The position numbers and the translations under genes were made by a program. This document shows, piece after piece, positions 15,768-31,905 of a DNA stretch of 32,000 bases (its first letter is position 1; each line of letters starts with the position of its first letter). This DNA is from Candidatus Nanobsidianus stetteri (GTDB lineage Archaea; Nanobdellota; Nanobdellia; Nanobdellales; Nanobdellaceae): assembly GCA_000387965.1 (NCBI GenBank), contig APJZ01000003.1, positions 43,014 through 75,013 of the forward strand, in the 5' to 3' direction. Below the pieces are notes generated by a model. That model was not told the DNA's origin and made no database searches. It worked only from the letters and a program-made list of their open reading frames with translations.

Positions 15768-17417
15768 ATGTATGAACTTATTAATGATATTATAAAAAAG
15801 AGCCTTAGAAAGATTACCATAATATTTAGTATAATAATTGCATTAATAATTATAATAGGAAAATATTTACCGGTATTAAAAATATACTATCCAATTTTAT
15901 ATTTGTCAGCAGTTGTTTTTTCATTGGAGGTTATATTTCTAGAATATTATAAAACAAAAAAATCATTGGATAAATCCTTACTATATTATATAGCATATTT
16001 ATATTCTCTCTCATTTTCTACAAGTAATATTAAAAGATTATTAGAAATTGCAATTGAAGAAAAAACAGAATTTAAGGATATAAATTATTATATGTCAAAA
16101 ATTCTTTTTTTAACAAATAAATATAATTATACAATCCCAGAAGCTATAAGATATGTATTACCATATATTCCAAATAGTAATTTTAAAAGTTTTTTAGAGA
16201 GATTTGCAACTTCAATTGATATTGGCGAAGAAATATCAGAATTTTTATATAAAGAATATGAAACACAATTAGCAATATATGAAGCAAATTATGAAAAAGG
16301 TTTAGAAAATATAAGATTATTAGATGAATTTATAATATCTTTATTATCATCTTTAGGATTTGCATTTTCTTTAATATTGTTTATACCATTCTTAGTAAGT
16401 GCAAATATAATATTTTTACTAGCAGATTTTTTTATAATATTCATTGTAATTAATTTACTCATATATTATGTATCAAAATATTATATCCCTGATGATGGAT
16501 TATGGTCTCATTCAAAAGAAAAACCAAAAGAATATATAACAATAAGATATTTATTTTACATTTTATCATTCTTATCTTATATATTATTTTTAGCATTATT
16601 TTTAGTATTAAAATTACAATTATTAGAGGCCTTTGCAATAGCAGTTACACCCTTAGCATATGTAAGCTATAGGATGATATTATTAGAGAGAGCATTAAAA
16701 ATAAAGGAAAATCATTTTCCAGCATTCTTTAGTAGTATAATAGAATATTCAGAAATATTTGGAAGTAATCAAACAAAAATATTGGATAATGTTATTATAC
16801 ATGATTTTGGTTTATTAAATGAAGATATTAACAGATTAAGGAAAAGGATAAACATAACAAAAAATTATTCCGAATCTTGGAGATATTTTATAGTTGAATT
16901 GGGTAGTTCTATTGCAGAAAAAATAATAAAGGTATTTGAAAAAGTTTTATCATATAATGGAGATACAAAAAAAGCAGGAGATATGTTATATAATATATTA
17001 ATAAAGATAATTGAGCTTAGATCTAGAAAATCTCAATTTATATCAAATTTAAGGGGTATTATATATGGAACATATATAGCATTTATAGCAATTTTATTCA
17101 TAATTGCTCAAATATTATATTTATTAAACCAGATGTTTCAAGGTGTATCTACAGCACTTGGTTCTGCAGTAGCTCAGATAGGTATAAATATATATACATT
17201 TTCAATACCTTTATATATATTGCAGGATTATATATTTGTAATATCTATTATTGAAGCTTTTATTTTAGCAGGAGCATTGAAAAATATAGATGGAGGATCT
17301 AAACTTGGAATGTTCCTGGATGCGACAGTTATGATATGGTTAAGTGCATTATTGAATATTTTGGTATATTATTTATTTACATATGTATTTTCGGGTCTAT
17401 CTTTAGTAAAGCTATAA
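15768..17417 (+). CDS. FlaJ/TadC-like polytopic membrane protein (second paralog in the window)
   Basis: 549 aa. It has two repeated cytoplasmic helical domains (IPEAIRYVLPYIPNSNFKSFLERFATSIDIGEEISEFL and FPAFFSSIIEYSEIFGSNQTK...), each followed by clustered TM segments. Confidence 0.65.
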   Translation: MYELINDIIKKSLRKITIIFSIIIALIIIIGKYLPVLKIYYPILYLSAVVFSLEVIFLEYYKTKKSLDKSLLYYIAYLYSLSFSTSNIKRLLEIAIEEKTEFKDINYYMSKILFLTNKYNYTIPEAIRYVLPYIPNSNFKSFLERFATSIDIGEEISEFLYKEYETQLAIYEANYEKGLENIRLLDEFIISLLSSLGFAFSLILFIPFLVSANIIFLLADFFIIFIVINLLIYYVSKYYIPDDGLWSHSKEKPKEYITIRYLFYILSFLSYILFLALFLVLKLQLLEAFAIAVTPLAYVSYRMILLERALKIKENHFPAFFSSIIEYSEIFGSNQTKILDNVIIHDFGLLNEDINRLRKRINITKNYSESWRYFIVELGSSIAEKIIKVFEKVLSYNGDTKKAGDMLYNILIKIIELRSRKSQFISNLRGIIYGTYIAFIAILFIIAQILYLLNQMFQGVSTALGSAVAQIGINIYTFSIPLYILQDYIFVISIIEAFILAGALKNIDGGSKLGMFLDATVMIWLSALLNILVYYLFTYVFSGLSLVKL

Positions 17418-17857
17418 TTTATTTTTCTTTCTTTTGGTATAAAATCTTTCAATATATTATTTTTAATATAAACACTACATAAAATATCATTACCATCTTT
17501 TGCTATATAAAAACCATTTTCATAATTTTTTTCCAATTTTATATTTTCATAGAATTTATAAAAAAGGTTTTCCTTTTTTATTTCAATAATTTTATTAGAA
17601 TTTATTCCAAAAATTTGTGCACCTTCTATACTAAATCTATATATATTATTTTTCTCTATTTTAATTACATATAAACCATATTTTTTTATATATTTTTCAT
17701 CTAAAAAATCTGGAAAATTTTTATTAAACATATATATTTTATCTTTATTAATGAAAAATCTATATTTCTTTATTATTGACTTATCTATATTTATATTATA
17801 ATATTCTTCTATTTTCTTGAATATTTCTTCTATATTCTTTTTATTTAATTCCTTCAT
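17369..17857 (-). CDS. small conserved protein, possibly NIP7/PUA-like (tentative)
   Basis: 162 aa. GLYVIKIEKNNIYRFSIEGAQIFG resembles the NIP7-type N-domain/PUA architecture from memory only. It forms an operon with rfcL through a 4-nt overlap. Confidence 0.35.
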   Translation of the reverse strand: MKELNKKNIEEIFKKIEEYYNINIDKSIIKKYRFFINKDKIYMFNKNFPDFLDEKYIKKYGLYVIKIEKNNIYRFSIEGAQIFGINSNKIIEIKKENLFYKFYENIKLEKNYENGFYIAKDGNDILCSVYIKNNILKDFIPKERKINYSFTKDRPENTYVNK

Positions 17858-19080
17858 AATTTTTCTACAGCTTCTTTTATATATGATATTTCATTTTCAT
17901 TAAATCCTAGTATTTTTGCATACTCTTTTCCTATTTTTTCATTTTCTTTCATTAAAACAATTAATGTATTTATATATACTTCCCTAATTCTCTTTTTTGA
18001 TGTATGGACCTTCTTTTGTAAATTTTTTGATAATTCTTCAATTTTTTCCCTTATTTCCTTATTTTGCGATAATTTTTTTACATATTGTGGCATTCTATAT
18101 TTTGTAAATTTATTATATCTCTTTTCTTTTGCTAATGCAACTCCAGCATACATTAATGTTGTAAAATATTTTAATAGATCCCAATATTGTCTTCTATAAA
18201 TTCTTCCATAAAATACAACTGCCAAAGATAACCAATTATAAGCTTCATATATTTCTTTTATATTTTCATATTCATTTGATATATTTTCTTCAACCCATGC
18301 TTTAATTTCCTCAGGATCCATATCTACATCTGCAAATGGTAATGTAGCACCCATTATTGTGTTTGCCTTAAACATTTGACCCAATGCTCTAAATATTGTA
18401 ATCTCCCTTTCTCTATAACCTAAAACTTCTAAATCTTTCAATGTAATATGATTAGTCATTGTTGCCAATGCTTGTAGATCATTTATTGCACTTCTTAAAT
18501 CTCCGGATGATCTTTCTACAAGTGCAGATAATGCATTATCATCAATTGTTATCTTTTCATTTGTACAAATTCTCTTTAATTGTCTTATTATATCGGTATT
18601 TGATAATTTTTTGAATTCAACCATATCACATGAATCTCTTAATTTCTTAAATTTTGGATCCCATGGATCATTTGCAGTCAATATTATAGGCCATCTTGAT
18701 TCTTCTACTATTTTTACCAATGCTCCAATTCCACCTTTATCTTGAAATCCAGCTAGTCCATCTACTTCATCAACCAAAATTATCCTTCCTTTTTTGAAAA
18801 ATGGTTTTCCCTTTATTGCTTCTCCCAATTTTTCATGTATAACCCTTGCATTTCTATTATCAGAAGCATTTAATTCTACAACTTCATAATCTAAATCATT
18901 TGCAATTGCATATATTGATGAAGTCTTTCCAACACCTGGAGGTCCATATATTAATAATGCTTTTTTACTTACATTTGGATATTTTTCAATAAAGGATTTT
19001 ATTTTTCCAATAGCCTCTGATTGATTAATTATTTCATTAATATGTTTTGGTGCATATTTTTTTATCCATGGTTCAACCAT
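17854..19080 (-). CDS. rfcL: replication factor C large subunit
   Basis: 408 aa. It starts with WIKKYAPKHINEI, and has Walker A GPPGVGKTS, Walker B ILVDEVDGL and a sensor region SGDLRSAINDLQ. Confidence 0.88.
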   Translation of the reverse strand: MVEPWIKKYAPKHINEIINQSEAIGKIKSFIEKYPNVSKKALLIYGPPGVGKTSSIYAIANDLDYEVVELNASDNRNARVIHEKLGEAIKGKPFFKKGRIILVDEVDGLAGFQDKGGIGALVKIVEESRWPIILTANDPWDPKFKKLRDSCDMVEFKKLSNTDIIRQLKRICTNEKITIDDNALSALVERSSGDLRSAINDLQALATMTNHITLKDLEVLGYREREITIFRALGQMFKANTIMGATLPFADVDMDPEEIKAWVEENISNEYENIKEIYEAYNWLSLAVVFYGRIYRRQYWDLLKYFTTLMYAGVALAKEKRYNKFTKYRMPQYVKKLSQNKEIREKIEELSKNLQKKVHTSKKRIREVYINTLIVLMKENEKIGKEYAKILGFNENEISYIKEAVEKL

Positions 19081-19127
19081 TATTTATATTTTTATATCAA
19101 AATATATAGATTAATATATGTTATCTA

Positions 19128-19196
19128 ATAGTTACTATTTGATGATAGATAGTAACGATAAATTTAAAAAATTTTTCCAACAATAATTATAGTATG
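19128..19196 (+). promoter_or_regulatory. island promoter/operator cassette, copy A
   Basis: ATAGTTAC-N13-ATAGTAAC boxes, including the inverted repeat TTACTAT-N10-ATAGTAA at 19132-19155. The TATA-like TTTAAAAAA at 19163-19171 is centred ~27 nt before ATG 19194. It is near-identical to copy C (2 substitutions in the first 43 nt). Confidence 0.6.
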
Positions 19197-19808
19197 ATAG
19201 ATACATTCTCATATCAAAACAAATCTGAGATAATAGAAGAAAGAATAAGATGGGCTAGGCAAAGAGCTAAAGAAAGTGAAAGTCCTGATATGCATGGATA
19301 TGCAATAATATTAGAAGTACTGTATAATTTGGCGCGAGAGAGAGCTCCAGAAGTCTTACGACAATTAGAAAAAGTAGTAGAAAGGACAGATGCCTTTACT
19401 TATGATATTCAAAAATTATCAGCAATTAGAGACTACATTAGAGATCATATATCTCCTTCAGAACAAGAGAATACTCGCAAACAGAAGATACAATACTTAA
19501 AAGAAGGTTTAGAAAAACTATTAGACTGGGATGTAGAAGATTACCTATATGATTTGTATAAGAGTATACGTTCTGGAGATCTTATTCCATTAGATTTTGA
19601 TTTCTATCTAGAAAGAGTAAGAGATTGGGCATATTTTACTGGTCATAGATTAGATTGGGAAACTAAAATAAGGTATGCACGAAAAGAAGCAGCATATGAC
19701 CGTCTTAGCTCTCATATAAAATGTTTATTAAGTAATCCTGAAGGGTATATGCAACACCTGAAATCGGGCGATTTAGAAAAGTTTGTTAGAGAATTATGTA
19801 AGTCCTAG
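19194..19808 (+). CDS. island orphan protein A (204 aa, soluble, helical-looking, R/E/D/W-rich)
   Basis: Long ORF in locally G+C-richer DNA that uses CGN Arg codons (for example CGA at 19335-19337). The promoter cassette is positioned for a leaderless start. I recognise no motif. Confidence 0.7.
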   Translation: MIDTFSYQNKSEIIEERIRWARQRAKESESPDMHGYAIILEVLYNLARERAPEVLRQLEKVVERTDAFTYDIQKLSAIRDYIRDHISPSEQENTRKQKIQYLKEGLEKLLDWDVEDYLYDLYKSIRSGDLIPLDFDFYLERVRDWAYFTGHRLDWETKIRYARKEAAYDRLSSHIKCLLSNPEGYMQHLKSGDLEKFVRELCKS

Positions 19809-19925
19809 CTAGAGTTTGAGTAAATCAATTAAAAGTTGTGGAAAAAATCTGAAAAAGTATATACACAACACATATAAGAGAGAAAATTATACAAATAAGT
19901 AAAGAGCTAAGCAAAATAAAGTATC

Positions 19926-19944
19926 TTTTTGTTATATATTTTTT
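19926..19944 (+). terminator. oligo-T tracts downstream of island ORF A
   Basis: T5 at 19926-19930 and T6 at 19939-19944. Archaeal RNAP terminates at oligo-T, but T runs are common in AT-rich DNA. Confidence 0.25.
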
Positions 19945-19975
19945 AAAATATCAAATTATATATAACGAATTTAAT

Positions 19976-20042
19976 ATAATTACTGTATAATAGTAGATAA
20001 TAACAATAAACTTAAAAAATTTCTAATAATTAATTAGTTATG
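19976..20042 (+). promoter_or_regulatory. island promoter/operator cassette, copy B (diverged)
   Basis: ATAATTAC-N13-ATAATAAC boxes and CAATAAACTTAAAAAATTT align in register with copies A and C (roughly 80% identity by eye). The TATA box is centred ~26 nt before ATG 20040. Confidence 0.5.
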
Positions 20043-20726
20043 ACGGATGGACATGATATTAAGAATGACATAATAATTAAGTATGGCCTTTCCCATATAC
20101 TTTTTACTGAACTGCAGCAATGTGGAGCAGATTTCAAAAATACATTAGCAGAAGGAAATCGTCAAATATTATATATCACAATTGATGTATTTGAGAAAAT
20201 GGGTACTGAAATGTTCTATAAGGCAGACAAAACACTCCGATCATCATTAGATGAATTAATGAAAGCTATAATGGAATGGAGGAAATGTAAAACACCTCCA
20301 AATGATTATGATAGTCTTATAAGATGTCTAACAGAATGCCGCCTTACAACCGGTATAGCAGGGGCTATTAATGAATACTTAAAAGAAATTAACGCTACGG
20401 ACTTTGAAAAGAAAGTTTATAATTTAATCGAAGCTATAGAGCATCTATCACGTTCATATGTACTTGACGCTTTGTATGAAAGACTAAAAAATAAAACTAA
20501 TGATGAAATTTATAGATCTATAGATAAACTATCTAGAAATTCTGAATCCAAAGAAGGATCAACCAACTATCTAGAAAAAACTAAAAAAGGTGTTTATGAA
20601 ATTAATCATATTTTTCAAAAAGCATCTCAAGATGTTAAAGAGCCCATAAAAATTCTATTAAAAGATCCTAAAAAGAATATAAAACTATTTTATGCAATTA
20701 TAGGTTTTAATTTGTATAAAAACTGA
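20040..20726 (+). CDS. island orphan protein B (228 aa, soluble, helical-looking, Cys-containing)
   Basis: Long ORF with several CGN Arg codons (cgt, cga, cgc). It has its own promoter cassette. I recognise no motif. Confidence 0.7.
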   Translation: MTDGHDIKNDIIIKYGLSHILFTELQQCGADFKNTLAEGNRQILYITIDVFEKMGTEMFYKADKTLRSSLDELMKAIMEWRKCKTPPNDYDSLIRCLTECRLTTGIAGAINEYLKEINATDFEKKVYNLIEAIEHLSRSYVLDALYERLKNKTNDEIYRSIDKLSRNSESKEGSTNYLEKTKKGVYEINHIFQKASQDVKEPIKILLKDPKKNIKLFYAIIGFNLYKN

Positions 20727-20774
20727 AAAATCTCAACATCTTTAGATGATCATCATTATTAGAAGACATGCATA

Positions 20775-20780
20775 TTTTTT
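20775..20780 (+). terminator. oligo-T tract downstream of island ORF B
   Basis: T6 located 49 nt after the stop codon. Confidence 0.25.
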
Positions 20781-20842
20781 ATTCCTAGCCTAGTCATTAT
20801 TTTTATTTTAGAATATTAAAGTTACATAAAATATACTTAAGC

Positions 20843-20910
20843 ATAATTACTATTTGATGATAGATAGTAACAATAAATTTAAAAATTTTCCAACAATAAC
20901 TTTTAGTATG
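20843..20910 (+). promoter_or_regulatory. island promoter/operator cassette, copy C
   Basis: ATAATTAC-N13-ATAGTAAC boxes, with the inverted repeat TTACTAT-N10-ATAGTAA at 20847-20870. The TATA-like ATTTAAAAA at 20877-20885 is centred ~27 nt before ATG 20908. Confidence 0.6.
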
Positions 20911-21612
20911 AGATATATATCTTCAGATAAAGACTTATATGGAAAAATAAAAGGAGAAACTCTGAAAATAGAAGAAATATTGAAAAAAATAAAGGAAAAA
21001 AGAGGGATGGACAAGCTTATCGACGAAGTTGATGATTCACAATATTTTATAGAAGAAGTATTAAAAAAAATAAAGGAAAAAGAGGGGATAGACACACCTA
21101 TCGATGAAGTCGATAAGTTAAAATATTTTTATAAATACATAGTAGGGGACATACTCATAAAAATATCAACAAATGCGCCACAGACTGCAGGAAAATACGT
21201 AAGATTAGTAGAAAAATTACAGGAATTGGACATATGTAAAAGTTCTTTAATTAAAGATTGGGAAGCTCTCTACCAGTGTATGGGTGAATACTACTTTAAG
21301 ATTGGCATAATAATGGGTACCCGCCGTTATATTGAATTGCATGGTGAATTCTTATCTAAACCAGGAGAACTTGAAAATTTTATTAATGGTTTGGAAACTT
21401 TAGTAGATGGTAAAGTAATAAAGGGCCTGTATAAACTCTATCAAGAAGTAAAAGAACTAAACTCAAAATATCTATTAGATGTAAATAAATATAATCATTC
21501 AGTATCTCAAGAAGATATAATTATAATGTCATATGAATTAGCATCTAAGTTTGTTGCGGATCTTATATTTAGCTATTTATTAGGATATATATCATTAGAA
21601 ACTGCAATATAG
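20908..21612 (+). CDS. island orphan protein C (234 aa from Met 20908; contains a 2 x 27-aa tandem repeat)
   Basis: The ORF track opens this frame at 20854 (TTG/ATG inside the conserved cassette). The cassette geometry shared with A and B points to ATG 20908 (MRYISSDKDLYG...) as the start. It uses CGC and CGT Arg codons (TRRY). Confidence 0.65.
   Translation: MRYISSDKDLYGKIKGETLKIEEILKKIKEKRGMDKLIDEVDDSQYFIEEVLKKIKEKEGIDTPIDEVDKLKYFYKYIVGDILIKISTNAPQTAGKYVRLVEKLQELDICKSSLIKDWEALYQCMGEYYFKIGIIMGTRRYIELHGEFLSKPGELENFINGLETLVDGKVIKGLYKLYQEVKELNSKYLLDVNKYNHSVSQEDIIIMSYELASKFVADLIFSYLLGYISLETAI
20971..21132 (+). repeat. 81-nt in-frame tandem duplication inside island ORF C
   Basis: EEILKKIKEKRGMDKLIDEVDDSQYFI (20971-21051) versus EEVLKKIKEKEGIDTPIDEVDKLKYFY (21052-21132). 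The period is exactly 81 nt. Confidence 0.85.
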
Positions 21613-21698
21613 CAACATATAGATTATATGGTGACTGTAAAACAGAAAATCAAAATGCATAAGACTTTTTGATAAAATCTTTTTTATTTAATTTTTAT

Positions 21699-22118
21699 TT
21701 AATGACCAAATAAAGAGAAAAGTCCACTTAATATACCACCTTTACTTTCAACTATTTGGCATGGTAAAATTGCCTCATATTGATTACCATTCACAGTATA
21801 ATATACTCTTACATATGCATTTAATATAATAATATTATTATTTACACTACATGCATTCATAGATCCATAACTTATATTTCCTAAATTGCATGTTGAATTT
21901 TCATAGAAATTATATACTGTTACATTTTCCAAATTTTGTTTTGCAGTAATTATGATAAGAGATGTTCCATTTGAATATTGACAATTATATGTAAAATATT
22001 CCAAATATGGTGGCAAATAAGATGTTACATAATATGTATATATTGCATATAGCACAATCAATATAAAAGCTGCTACACCAACCCAGATTACAAATTTTGG
22101 TATCTTTGATATATCCAT
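21699..22118 (-). CDS. small N-terminally anchored or secreted Cys- and sequon-rich protein
   Basis: 139 aa. It has an N-terminal TM segment (FVIWVGVAAFILIVLYAIYTYYV), 4 Cys and several N-x-S/T sequons (NGT, NVT, NST, NIS). Confidence 0.5.
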   Translation of the reverse strand: MDISKIPKFVIWVGVAAFILIVLYAIYTYYVTSYLPPYLEYFTYNCQYSNGTSLIIITAKQNLENVTVYNFYENSTCNLGNISYGSMNACSVNNNIIILNAYVRVYYTVNGNQYEAILPCQIVESKGGILSGLFSLFGH

Positions 22119-22122
22119 AAAA

Positions 22123-22437
22123 TTAATTTTGATCTACATATATATAAACATAGATATATTTATTCCCCCTATCTTCAATCTTCATATTTTTTATAATCTC
22201 TTCATATTTTTTATTATCTATATCAAATAAATCTGGATATTTATTTAATATATAATCCATTATTAATCTTTTTATCATAATATCCCCATTCTTATACATA
22301 TTTTCAGAATAATATTCATCTAAAATCCCTTCTATTATATATTTTGGAATCTTAAATTCATATTCAATATTATACGGCATGTAAAATTTTACTATTTTCC
22401 AAAATATAAATGATTGCTTTATATTCTTGAATTTCAA
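22123..22437 (-). CDS. small hypothetical protein
   Basis: 104 aa ORF between rfcS and the 139-aa gene. The start is uncertain, with an internal Met at 22380 possible. It has no recognisable motif. Confidence 0.4.
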   Translation of the reverse strand: MKFKNIKQSFIFWKIVKFYMPYNIEYEFKIPKYIIEGILDEYYSENMYKNGDIMIKRLIMDYILNKYPDLFDIDNKKYEEIIKNMKIEDRGNKYIYVYIYVDQN

Positions 22438-22453
22438 AAATGATTATCAAAAA

Positions 22454-23422
22454 TTATTTTCTACTTTGCAAACCTCTAAGCCCTATATATGCTAACAAAG
22501 CACCTAATTGTATTATTGGATCTGAACCTTCTAACAATCTATATTCTACTTCTCCAGCATAATATATTATATCTAATTTTTCTTTTTCTGGTATATTCAT
22601 AGAATAAACTTCTTTTGATAAATATTTAATTATATCTTCTCCTGCAAGACCATATTTTATCATTAAATCAATTAATTTTTCTCTAGCCTCAACAAATTTT
22701 CCTTCATATGCTAATTTTAATACTTCCTGTAATTCTTGCGGCTTTGCTACAGAAGCAACTTCATATATTAATTCTGGGGTTATATCTTTAGAATATAAAG
22801 CTGCAGCTTGTAACATATTTATTGATTTTCTCATATCACCTTCTGAAATATAGTATATTGCTTCTAATGCATCATCACTTATATTCAAATTTTCTTTTTC
22901 AGCTATTGATCTTAATAAATCGAATACATCTTTTTTATCTAATTGTTTAAATCTAAATATAACAGTTCTAGATTGTATTGGTTCTATAATTTTTGATGAA
23001 TAATTACATGCCAATATAAATCTTGTTATTGAAGAATATTCTTCCATTATTCTTCTCAAAGCTTGCTGTGCATCTCTTGTCATTGCATCTGCTTCATCCA
23101 AAAATACAATTTTAAATGGAAAATCTCCAATTGGTTTTGTTCTTGCAAATTCTTTTACTTTTTCTCTTATTACATCAATTCCCCTATCATCTGAAGCATT
23201 TAATTGTAGTACATTTTGTTCCCATTTATCTCCATATAATTCTCTTGCCAATGCCAATGCAGCAGTTGTTTTTCCAACACCAGCAGGTCCTGCAAATAAT
23301 AGATGAGGCATATTTTTATTCTCTACAAATGCCTTCAATCTTTTTACTATTTCATCTTGTCCTTTTATATCATCCAATCTTTTTGGTCTATATTTTTCTG
23401 TCCATATTTCATTCTCTGGCAT
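22454..23422 (-). CDS. rfcS: replication factor C small subunit (intein-free)
   Basis: 322 aa. It starts with [13 protein letters not shown], and has Walker [10 protein letters not shown], Walker B LDEADAMT, an SRC-type motif (QSRTVIFRF) and sensor 2 [11 protein letters not shown]. Confidence 0.92.
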
Positions 23423-27360: not shown

Positions 27361-27726
27361 ATGAAAAAGATAGGTGATGTAGAATTAAGATTGGCAAAAG
27401 GACCCGTTCCACATTATAAAGAATTAAAAGAATTAGAAAGAAGTATAGTAAAAGTAATTATTGAAGAATTCGGGACAGAAGAATTAATAAAAAGATATTC
27501 AAATCCATTATGGTTTAATTCTTTAGCATGTTTACTTGGATTTGAATGGAATTATTCTGGAATGACTACTGTAACTCTAAAAGCATTAAAAGAAATATCT
27601 ATAGAAGATAATCTGCCAATAATTGTTTTAGGAGGAAAGGGAAAGGATTCTAAAATAACTGAAGAGATAGAAACTAAAGATATAAAAGACAAATTAAAAG
27701 ATAAGATAAAGGTTTATTATCAATAA
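27361..27726 (+). CDS. truncated duplicate of the N-terminal part of the gene at the right window edge (possibly DUF763-like N-domain)
   Basis: 121 aa. Its 3' 50 nt (27663-27712) are the exact reverse complement of 31951-32000. Homology decays after that point, and a stop follows 5 codons later. The DUF763 family recall (WF..L....GF.W..SG.TT...ALKE) is from memory and is tentative. Confidence 0.55.
   Translation: MKKIGDVELRLAKGPVPHYKELKELERSIVKVIIEEFGTEELIKRYSNPLWFNSLACLLGFEWNYSGMTTVTLKALKEISIEDNLPIIVLGGKGKDSKITEEIETKDIKDKLKDKIKVYYQ
27663..27712. repeat. left arm of perfect inverted repeat
   Basis: AGAGATAGAAACTAAAGATATAAAAGACAAATTAAAAGATAAGATAAAGG equals the reverse complement of 31951-32000, checked base by base. 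Confidence 0.95.
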
Positions 27727-27832: not shown

Positions 27833-27905
27833 GGGACCGTGGTCTAGTGGCTATGACGCCACCCTTACAAGGTGGAGGTCCGGGGTTCGAATCCCCGCGG
27901 TCCCA
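27833..27905 (+). tRNA. tRNA-Val (anticodon UAC), no intron, no encoded CCA
   Basis: Hand-folded cloverleaf. The acceptor stem is GGGACCG/CGGTCCC, the anticodon stem CCACC/GGTGG with loop CTTACAA, and the T arm CGGGG-TTCGAAT-CCCCG, with discriminator A. It is 47/73 G+C by my count. Confidence 0.9.
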
Positions 27906-27937: not shown

Positions 27938-28576
27938 ATGCCAGAAATATCATTATTAGAAAAATCTACTGATAAATATGCAGTCGATAAAGATGAGAAA
28001 ATATATAAGTTAAAATTATTGATAAGAGATGTAACCCCGAATTTCTTAAATGTTTTAAGGAGAGCAATACTGGAAGAAGTAAAAACATTGGCAATTGAAG
28101 ATGTTTATATTATAGAAAATAATTCTGCAATATGGGATGAAATGTTAGCACATAGATTGGGTTTGGTTGTATTAAATACTCCTGAAAATATTAAAGAAAA
28201 TGAAGAAATAAAATTTTATTTAGAAAAAAATGAAAAAGGATATATATATGGTTCTGATTTAAAGACTGATAAAAAAGACGTATATGTAGTTTATCCAGAA
28301 ACAATGATTGCATATATTGATGAAAATCAAAAGGTAAAATTAGAAGCTGTCGCAATACTTGGTAATGGAAAACAACATGCAAAATTTATACCTGGACATG
28401 TTTATTATTATAGAACTGGAGAATTGAAATTAGAAGGAAAATTAGATGAAAAGGAATTGGAAAATTTAAAATTGTTAGGAGTAGAAATAAAGAAAAATAA
28501 AATACAAATACCAAAAGAAAAAGAATATGATAGAACTTTTTTAGATTCAATATTTCGAAATCGGAAGTTATATTAG
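27938..28576 (+). CDS. rpoD: DNA-directed RNA polymerase subunit D (Rpo3)
   Basis: 212 aa with FLNVLRRAILEEVKTLAIEDVYIIENNSAIWDEMLAHRLGLVVL and GKQHAKF motifs. I could not find the usual C-terminal F-x-x-E-S/T-x-G motif. Confidence 0.8.
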   Translation: MPEISLLEKSTDKYAVDKDEKIYKLKLLIRDVTPNFLNVLRRAILEEVKTLAIEDVYIIENNSAIWDEMLAHRLGLVVLNTPENIKENEEIKFYLEKNEKGYIYGSDLKTDKKDVYVVYPETMIAYIDENQKVKLEAVAILGNGKQHAKFIPGHVYYYRTGELKLEGKLDEKELENLKLLGVEIKKNKIQIPKEKEYDRTFLDSIFRNRKLY

Positions 28577-31233: not shown

Positions 31234-31905
31234 TCATATATTTATTAATTCATTTAATTTTCTCAAAGATCTTAATTTAAAATTATTATTAACTTTTGCT
31301 TCTTCAATTGCATTCCTTAATAATTCTGCTTCTTCTAACATTAATGTTCTTTTAACATAATATGGTTTTCCAACTTTTGTTCCATGTGCAAATGTATATA
31401 TTATTGGATCTTTCCATGATAATTCACTTCCATATATTATTTTTGCGGTATATGCCAGTGCTCTTAACAATCCAGGTCCAAAACCTTTTATAAATAATAA
31501 ATCTTTGAAATTTTCTACAGTCCTATTAATTTCCAATGCTTTCCAATATATTTTATCTGGTATCTTTAAATAGTAAGGTAATTCCTGATAAAATATATAA
31601 TCATTGTTTTCTTTATTAATATATTTTAATATAGTATTATTTTTATTTTGATATGATTTTAATCTTATTATATATTCTTTTATTTTTTCTATTCTCTCAT
31701 CATTAATTATTTCTAAAATATTCTTCCTTAATTCTTCAGATTCTTTTGATGATAAATTTAATGTTTTTGTATTTGACCCAAAACCAATTTGGGAATCATC
31801 AAAATAATTTATATTTATCCAATGAAATCTTCTGACTTTTTGTTCTTTTATTGACATTTTTTGATTTATAATAGTCATATTACTTTTTTCATCAGAAATT
31901 TCCAT
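31234..31905 (-). CDS. C-terminal part of a conserved protein (HhH-like GFGPGLLRALA; possibly DUF763 C-domain)
   Basis: 223 aa. Its ATG (31905-31903) lies inside the last codons of the upstream partial ORF, which is in another frame. It contains WKDPIIYTFAHGTKVGKPYYV. The family call is tentative and from memory. Confidence 0.55.
   Translation of the reverse strand: MEISDEKSNMTIINQKMSIKEQKVRRFHWININYFDDSQIGFGSNTKTLNLSSKESEELRKNILEIINDERIEKIKEYIIRLKSYQNKNNTILKYINKENNDYIFYQELPYYLKIPDKIYWKALEINRTVENFKDLLFIKGFGPGLLRALAYTAKIIYGSELSWKDPIIYTFAHGTKVGKPYYVKRTLMLEEAELLRNAIEEAKVNNNFKLRSLRKLNELINI

Follow-up and report, generated by a model that had tools for sequence, protein, structure and literature searches.

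A strain-variable tandem array of divergent paralogs behind a shared upstream cassette between rfcL and rfcS of Candidatus Nanobsidianus stetteri

What lies between rfcL and rfcS, the genes for the large and small subunits of replication factor C (RFC), in Candidatus Nanobsidianus stetteri, and where did it come from? We analyzed a 32,000-nucleotide stretch of strain Nst1 (GenBank assembly GCA_000387965.1, contig APJZ01000003.1, positions 43,014 to 75,013), hereafter 'the window', with a G+C content of 24.4%. Three open reading frames (ORFs) occupy the interval on the plus strand: ORF A (Nst1_464, 19194–19808), ORF B (Nst1_465, 20040–20726), and ORF C (Nst1_466, 20908–21612), which encode proteins of 204, 228, and 234 amino acids (aa), respectively. 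The ORF A product is 100% identical to that of Nst1_464. An earlier note on this DNA had located the three ORFs correctly, and took them for a horizontally acquired, co-regulated accessory island of orphan genes. The account that we favor, with a probability of about 0.62, is a recombination-driven, co-regulated, diversifying tandem array of paralogs from a lineage-specific family, probably engaged in conflict with the host or with viruses.

Are the three genes related to one another? Pairwise BLASTP among A, B, and C gives hints only (E about 0.002–0.003). When proteins from the same interval of related genomes are compared, all 36 of 36 become connected by single linkage at BLASTP E < 1e-5. 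The resulting family has five main subfamilies (SF0 to SF4), with A in SF0, B in SF2, and C in SF1. Profile–profile alignment with hhalign connects SF0 to SF1 at a probability of 96.3% (E 1.7e-9, 149 columns), SF1 to SF2 at 96.2%, and SF0 to SF2 at 92.1%, whereas reversed-sequence controls reach at most 1.6%. The impression in the earlier note that the proteins do not resemble each other is therefore wrong at the profile level. SF1 members are also found as fused doublets of about 400 aa.

Nor are the genes orphans, as they had been called. ORFs A, B, and C have 23, 9, and 3 homolog clusters, respectively, all of Nanobsidianus- or Nanopusillus-type sequences. When 1.84 billion representative proteins were searched by profile, 27 matches came back, one of them a spurious repeat protein, and every match with a known source is of Nanopusillaceae type, labelled Nanobsidianus or Nanopusillus. 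By profile comparison, ORFs A, B, and C are diverged paralogs of one family that belongs to hot-spring Nanoarchaeota and is specific to Nanopusillaceae. The family has no match among PDB sequences, and ORFs A–C have no family match above cut-off in Pfam, NCBIfam, PHROG, or PADLOC (the best PADLOC hits are short, sub-threshold stretches with E-values of 0.005–0.03), just as the earlier note had recognized no known family, function, or motif. A literature search on the locus tags, the family, and the locus found no description. For annotation, the lesson is that pairwise comparison makes these three paralogs look like unrelated orphans.

How does the interval vary between strains? Loci were collected by anchoring on RfcL in 10 genomes, from the contexts of homologs, and by a metagenome scan with the cassette pattern described below; they carry L numbers here. 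The left anchor is rfcL (17854–19080, minus strand), whose product has the Pfam AAA, RFC lid, and RFC1 C-terminal domains and is 92–98% identical across 9 related genomes. The right anchor is the gene for a 139-aa membrane protein (tm139; Nst1_467, arCOG05419; 21699–22118, minus), followed by a small conserved ORF (Nst1_468; 22123–22437, minus; called as 83–85 aa in related strains) and by rfcS (22454–23422, minus; Pfam Rep_fac_C and AAA).

Among 22 distinct complete rfcL–tm139 intervals, the gap ranges from 219 to 5002 bp, that is, from a decayed remnant to five genes, with the flanking proteins 92–99% identical throughout. The order of subfamilies is shuffled: the window has SF0-SF2-SF1, L001 has SF0-SF3-SF2-SF4-SF0, and L007 has SF4-SF1-SF0-SF2-SF3. 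Content swapping in the rfcL–rfcS interval, which the earlier note had suggested looking for in related genomes, is thus found. A 7.9-kb contig (L017) is made up solely of family genes, at least eight of them. With a remnant to five genes at one site and at least eight on one contig, the description of an accessory rather than core module is borne out. About 250 kb of flanking sequence contains no family member. In a more distant Nanopusillaceae metagenome-assembled genome (MAG; L014), the RfcL of which is 77% identical, the rfcL–tm139 gap is only 35 bp, and both RFC genes, the small ORF, and tm139 lie together on one strand without interruption. Several contigs end within the array, and this tendency of assemblies to break inside it calls for caution in annotation.

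Family genes also occur elsewhere. At a second conserved locus (L083, 6161–8378; also L066, L095, L109, L069, and L110), an SF0-SF4-SF0-type triplet that has the cassette described below is flanked by a serpin gene and the gene of a 476-aa protein; the serpin gene is fragmented in L066 and L109. A third context, in L052, adjoins thioredoxin reductase (TrxR).

What do the array genes share besides ancestry? Each ORF in the window is preceded by a cassette of ~60 bp, which is present in three copies upstream of ORFs A–C and nowhere else in the window, so the shared upstream cassette proposed earlier is real. Its consensus is a 9-N6-9 palindrome, TTACTATCT-N6-AGATAGTAA, directly abutting a AACGATAAATTTAAAAA that resembles a B-recognition element (BRE) and TATA box. 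The cassette of ORF A (19132–19170, plus) contains TTACTATTT-GATGAT-AGATAGTAA at 19132–19155 and then the BRE/TATA-like CGATAAATTTAAAAA. That of ORF C (20847–20885, plus) has a palindrome identical to ORF A's, and that of ORF B (19976–20039, plus) is a more diverged copy with the core GATAATAACAATAAACTTAAAAA at 19996–20018. The cassette-to-ATG distances are 23, 21, and 22 nt for A, B, and C, respectively.

This arrangement holds across strains. We collected 139 distinct cassette instances, and in each strain a copy stands upstream of almost all family genes, which bears out the idea of a co-regulated module in the sense that nearly every gene has the same promoter/operator cassette. The ATG lies 21–23 nt downstream in 109 of the 139. 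In all array-bearing strains, the first cassette core begins at a distance of 68–72 nt from the start codon of rfcL. The left edge of the array in the window is a divergent intergenic region at 19081–19131, from the rfcL start to the first cassette. No instance is present in about 250 kb of flanking sequence. When metagenomes were scanned by the cassette pattern, 40 of 90 matching stretches carried family genes. The operator of Nps_02360, a family gene of N. acidilobi, is degenerate.

At archaeal promoters, transcription starts about 26 nt downstream of the TATA box. Given this architecture, each family gene would be transcribed on its own, essentially without a leader, under the control of a single regulator that binds the palindrome. 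The cassette also bears on the start of ORF C. The 251-aa ORF C product in the database and a 252-aa ORF with a TTG start both begin inside the palindromic operator (20854–20907 region). The database start is probably wrong and ATG 20908 is favored, because 21–23 nt consistently separate the TATA-like box from the ATG.

How do the genes evolve? Between the window and L001, ORF A has a synonymous divergence (dS) of 0.151, within the 0.06–0.20 of its flanks, but a ratio of non-synonymous to synonymous divergence (dN/dS) of 0.58, compared with 0.03–0.30 in the flanks; its non-synonymous rate is 5–10 times that of its neighbors. The ratio of ORF A ranges from 0.58 to 0.69 overall, and against closest relatives it is 0.35–0.47 for ORF B and 0.77 for ORF C. 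Because its dS equals that of the flanks, ORF A is indicated to be vertically inherited. The only value above 1, 1.87 for ORF B and the SF2 gene of L001, rests on a comparison that is saturated (42% identity) and cannot be relied on.

Position 2 of the array is occupied by different subfamilies in the window and L001, and their SF2 genes are only 42% identical, while relatives of ORF B at 88–90% identity reside in arrays with different neighbors. These comparisons of sequence and gene order indicate cassette exchange within the population. Gene ends also point to recombination. Paralogs of SF0 with an overall identity of 35% have nearly the same nucleotides in their last 28 codons, synonymous sites and the rare codons CAC, CTG, TCG, and GGC included. 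A sliding-window mosaic analysis was suggestive only. ORF C contains an 81-bp tandem duplication (20968–21129, plus) encoding two 27-aa repeats about 82% identical.

The right border carries its own traces. The right edge in the window (21613–21698), which is the 3′ untranslated region of ORF C, is 93% identical to the N. acidilobi sequence downstream of Nps_02355. In N. acidilobi (L009, CP010514), ~30 nt of the tm139 3′ end are duplicated on both sides of Nps_02360 (island positions 736–850 and 1575–1605 in window orientation), and these duplicated junctions resemble what an insertion or duplication would leave behind at the array's right border. The seemingly 'empty' 222-bp site of MAG RSNS12 (L011, 8583–8804) is a decayed, internally deleted Nps_02360-like gene, which keeps the promoter, the first codons (with a CAG to TAG nonsense change), and the last ~60 nt. 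MAG RSNP5 (L010, 5670–6387) has a single family gene with a stop at codon 10. Most copies are nevertheless intact, with 119 distinct intact coding sequences (CDS).

What kind of proteins are these? The AlphaFold2 model of ORF A is confident (predicted local distance difference test score, pLDDT, 91.8; predicted template modeling score, pTM, 0.88) and all-alpha with 10 helices, and that of ORF C (pLDDT 74) is also all-helical. The earlier expectation of entirely helical proteins thus agrees with both models. The predicted structure of ORF A has no match in the PDB or among viral structures in BFVD. ORF A has the C-terminal motif CLLSNPEGYMQHLKSGDLExFVRExC, and there are conserved residues, including two invariant cysteines. 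Nps_02355, the C-type homolog of N. acidilobi, has no transmembrane segment or signal peptide. Among 656 proteins in the proteome it is the 55th most abundant, with 0.44% of the spectra (Wurch et al. 2016, PMC4935971, Supplementary Data 1). That the ORFs might be non-coding artefacts was considered and rejected, since a family protein is detected by proteomics, the fold is predicted with confidence, and dN/dS stays below 1.

How would such a locus work? In the favored account, the interval is a tandem array of divergent paralogs encoding soluble, all-alpha proteins of about 200 aa, or ~400 aa for some fused doublets. Each gene would be its own transcription unit behind its ~60-bp cassette, giving leaderless mRNAs and answering to one shared DNA-binding regulator. 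Directly repeated cassettes and conserved gene ends would provide homology for unequal crossing-over, gene conversion, and inter-strain exchange, and because of this homology the array would expand, contract, shuffle, and decay. It would have been inserted, on the opposite strand, into the string rfcS–small ORF–membrane protein–rfcL, which is contiguous in the distant relative. Its products would be diversifying binding proteins, effector-like or immunity-like, acting in conflict or specificity with the crenarchaeal host or with viruses. This putative conflict role is favored because of the fast protein evolution, the variation of the repertoire, the one abundant member, and the obligate ectosymbiosis.

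Known systems provide partial likenesses. The lpl cluster of Staphylococcus aureus, reportedly described by Tsuru and Kobayashi in 2008, consists of tandem paralogs with copy-number variation. As in that cluster, the paralogs here are in tandem and in the same orientation, with copy number and order differing among strains, and the conserved unit appears to be the 3′ end of a gene, the intergenic sequence, and the 5′ end of the next gene, which would offer homology for crossing-over or conversion. However, lpl genes encode signal-peptide lipoproteins in a bacterial genomic island, whereas those described here encode soluble all-alpha proteins of an unrelated family in an archaeal ectosymbiont, each with a palindromic operator. 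The Borrelia erp (ospE/F-related) loci have a conserved 5′ operator and diversified coding regions, and their regulators are known. Similarly, a highly conserved promoter/operator precedes many divergent paralogs here, in a host-associated organism with a reduced genome, and because a conserved operator fronts divergent paralogs, one regulator for a variable repertoire is suggested, as in erp. On the other hand, erp genes encode surface lipoproteins and are dispersed on cp32 prophage-plasmids, unlike a chromosomal tandem array. What is new here is the protein family, along with its cassette and the kind of organism that carries it; the architecture resembles that of tandem paralog clusters and of operator-sharing variable families.

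Could the array instead be a poly-immunity or defense locus, in which divergent small cytoplasmic proteins each neutralize a different toxin or viral protein? SUKH-family arrays are tandem arrays of immunity genes of polymorphic toxin systems, and they too consist of small divergent cytoplasmic paralogs in a strain-variable repertoire. The small, soluble, helical tandem paralogs with raised dN/dS would suit such a role, as would the reported lack of CRISPR-Cas in Nst1 (PMC3655853). However, no toxin gene is linked to the array, and the proteins have neither a sequence or fold match to known immunity families nor a known immunity or defense domain. PADLOC gave noise only (E ≥ 0.005), and with no significant defense or toxin–antitoxin match in PADLOC or Pfam, the defense or toxin–antitoxin-like set listed as a candidate in the earlier note finds no backing. 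Some strains have a decayed array or one pseudogenized gene, which also counts against this role. We consider this explanation unlikely.

Could the paralogs be dispensable and drifting? A unit of promoter and ORF might amplify selfishly and be kept by duplication with little adaptive role. The dN/dS values of 0.35–0.77, the nonsense and deletion alleles, and the zero- or one-gene arrays in otherwise similar genomes all conform to this. Yet dN/dS is still below 1, and most ORFs remain intact. The confident fold prediction, the conserved residues with their two invariant cysteines, and the strong conservation of the operator/TATA cassette are not what drift predicts, nor is a member that ranks 55th in proteome abundance in a ~600-kb genome under strong reduction. 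We give this possibility little weight.

Was the block acquired as a foreign island, such as a remnant of a virus, a plasmid, or another mobile element? Its composition is one argument for this. The G+C content at third codon positions (GC3) is 0.20, 0.19, and 0.22 in ORFs A, B, and C, compared with about 0.12 typical elsewhere in the window. CGN codons make up 6 of 19 arginine codons in A, 4 of 9 in B, and 2 of 5 in C, in total 12 of 33, versus 3 of ~340 when the window's 35 remaining ORFs are pooled, confirming the contrast with AGA/AGG-using flanks described in the earlier note. The island has 30 CpG dinucleotides against a mean of 10.9 (z = 4.4) and a tetranucleotide distance of z = 3.8, both above all 121 other 2.6-kb windows. 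The reported compositional deviation therefore stands for these measures, but not for bulk G+C, which is 27.3% (z = 1.67), with values as high or higher in 13 of those 121; ribosomal-protein and TrxR regions reach 28–32%. Similarly, an excess of R/E/D/W/C/H over K/I/N residues holds for ORF A (0.33/0.17), while B and C are ordinary.

The deviation is not peculiar to the window. Across 11 strains, GC3 is 0.183 in 32 island genes versus 0.119 in 183 flanking genes (Mann–Whitney p = 1e-15), and the CGN share of arginine codons is 26.6% in the island versus 1.3% in the flanks. Strand bias was rejected as the cause of the codon deviation, since other plus-strand genes of the window have a GC3 of 0.07–0.11. 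GC-biased gene conversion at gene ends is unsupported as the cause of the composition, since the raised GC3 is uniform along family genes with no concentration at the homogenized ends. Deviant codon usage is thus a whole-family trait in all strains, and alone it is no proof of foreign origin or recent import.

A foreign island would also agree with the opposite strand of the block, with the absence of the array from the distant Nanopusillaceae genome (35-bp gap), and with presence/absence differences among strains. The strand contrast holds for the immediate neighbors only; the claim that the block runs opposite to every flanking gene fails for the gene at 15768–17417 and for the genes after 23463, which are on the plus strand. 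Against import, integrase or recombinase Pfam domains are absent within ±10 kb in 8 loci, no tRNA is near the island (the sole tRNA of the window is at 27833), and there are no att-like flanking repeats, the only repeats being the internal promoter cassettes. A family-alignment scan of IMG/VR viral contigs and searches of PHROGs and BFVD found no relatives, and no donor homologs were found in other taxa, viruses, or plasmids, although host genomes were not searched specifically. The 27 matches in 1.84 billion proteins, with named sources of Nanobsidianus or Nanopusillus, point the same way. Neither a virus or plasmid remnant nor the recent acquisition of a three-gene island is supported, as the genes are mutual paralogs rather than assorted unrelated cargo, the chromosomal site is constant across the genus, and the dS of ORF A equals that of the flanks. 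The island explanation is accordingly unlikely. The family may have been acquired long ago, or have arisen de novo, when the genus began, or it may still be exchanged with a pool outside the sampled strains.

An integron-like, site-specific cassette system with the palindrome as its recombination site is very improbable: the units do share one orientation, are bounded by imperfect palindromes, sit at a fixed chromosomal site with strain-variable content and shuffled order, and have short duplicated junctions around one of them, but there is no integrase or other recombinase within ±10 kb of any locus, every unit brings a promoter of its own, the sequence of the palindrome is conserved and runs into a TATA-like box that stands at promoter distance from each ATG, and all cassettes come from one protein family.

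The reading of the interval as a co-regulated, diversifying paralog array faces objections of its own. The proteins to which this putative function is assigned lack any motif, secretion signal, or fold match, and have no partner gene. The rfcL site is not the sole home of the family, which occupies at least two other contexts (serpin/476-aa protein and thioredoxin reductase). With dN/dS below 1 in close pairs, the data agree equally well with relaxed constraint and with positive selection. Because of the uniform GC3, conversion at gene ends does not explain the composition, and the cassettes may have an external source. Finally, only Nps_02355 of the two N. acidilobi members is in the proteome, Nps_02360 being undetected (PMC4935971).

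Other parts of the window and of related loci deserve mention. A 549-aa membrane protein (15768–17417, plus) matches ArlJ/FlaJ, the platform protein of archaella and type IV pili (NCBIfam E 9e-81, below the equivalog cut-off), and the 3′ end of its gene overlaps a convergent NIP7/PUA-like ORF (17369–17857) by 49 nt. A FlaJ/TadC homolog has been described as unusually polymorphic in Nanoarchaeota populations (PMC6142677); the dN/dS of the FlaJ gene between the window and L001 is an ordinary 0.08. DUF763 is split in the window into an N-terminal part (27361–27726, plus) and a C-terminal part (31234–31905, minus), ~3.5 kb apart, whereas related strains have a single 363-aa gene, with thioredoxin, a 141-aa ORF, TrxR, and FeS genes after it. 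Because of this split across strands, the block at ~27.7–31.9 kb is evidently inverted in this single-cell assembly, which could be a real rearrangement or a chimera of amplification or assembly. The Rpb3-like gene (27938–28576) encodes 212 aa, compared with 257 aa in L052. In N. stetteri DDW05, an extra 160-aa FtsJ/SAM-methyltransferase-like gene (L018, 7731–8213) lies between aldehyde dehydrogenase and DUF763; it is lacking in L001 and L004.

What would the array mean for the organism? Genomes of the Nanopusillus/Nanobsidianus group are about 0.6 Mb and are reported to lack CRISPR and to have nearly the lowest density of paralogs in the Archaea (PMC3655853). The array appears to be a hotspot of gene content in an otherwise highly syntenic genome. 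It is a candidate source of specificity factors between symbiont and host or symbiont and virus that is experimentally reachable, one member being abundant in the N. acidilobi–Acidilobus culture, and the conserved palindrome provides a handle for finding the regulator. More tentatively, the array could be a 'variable repertoire' locus under a single regulator, by which the population would hold a pool of new-fold all-alpha proteins directed at the host or viruses and setting host range or compatibility. If this is true, the locus would be the archaeal counterpart of the effector or variable-antigen multigene families of bacterial and eukaryotic parasites, found in a genome that otherwise has hardly any paralogs and no CRISPR.

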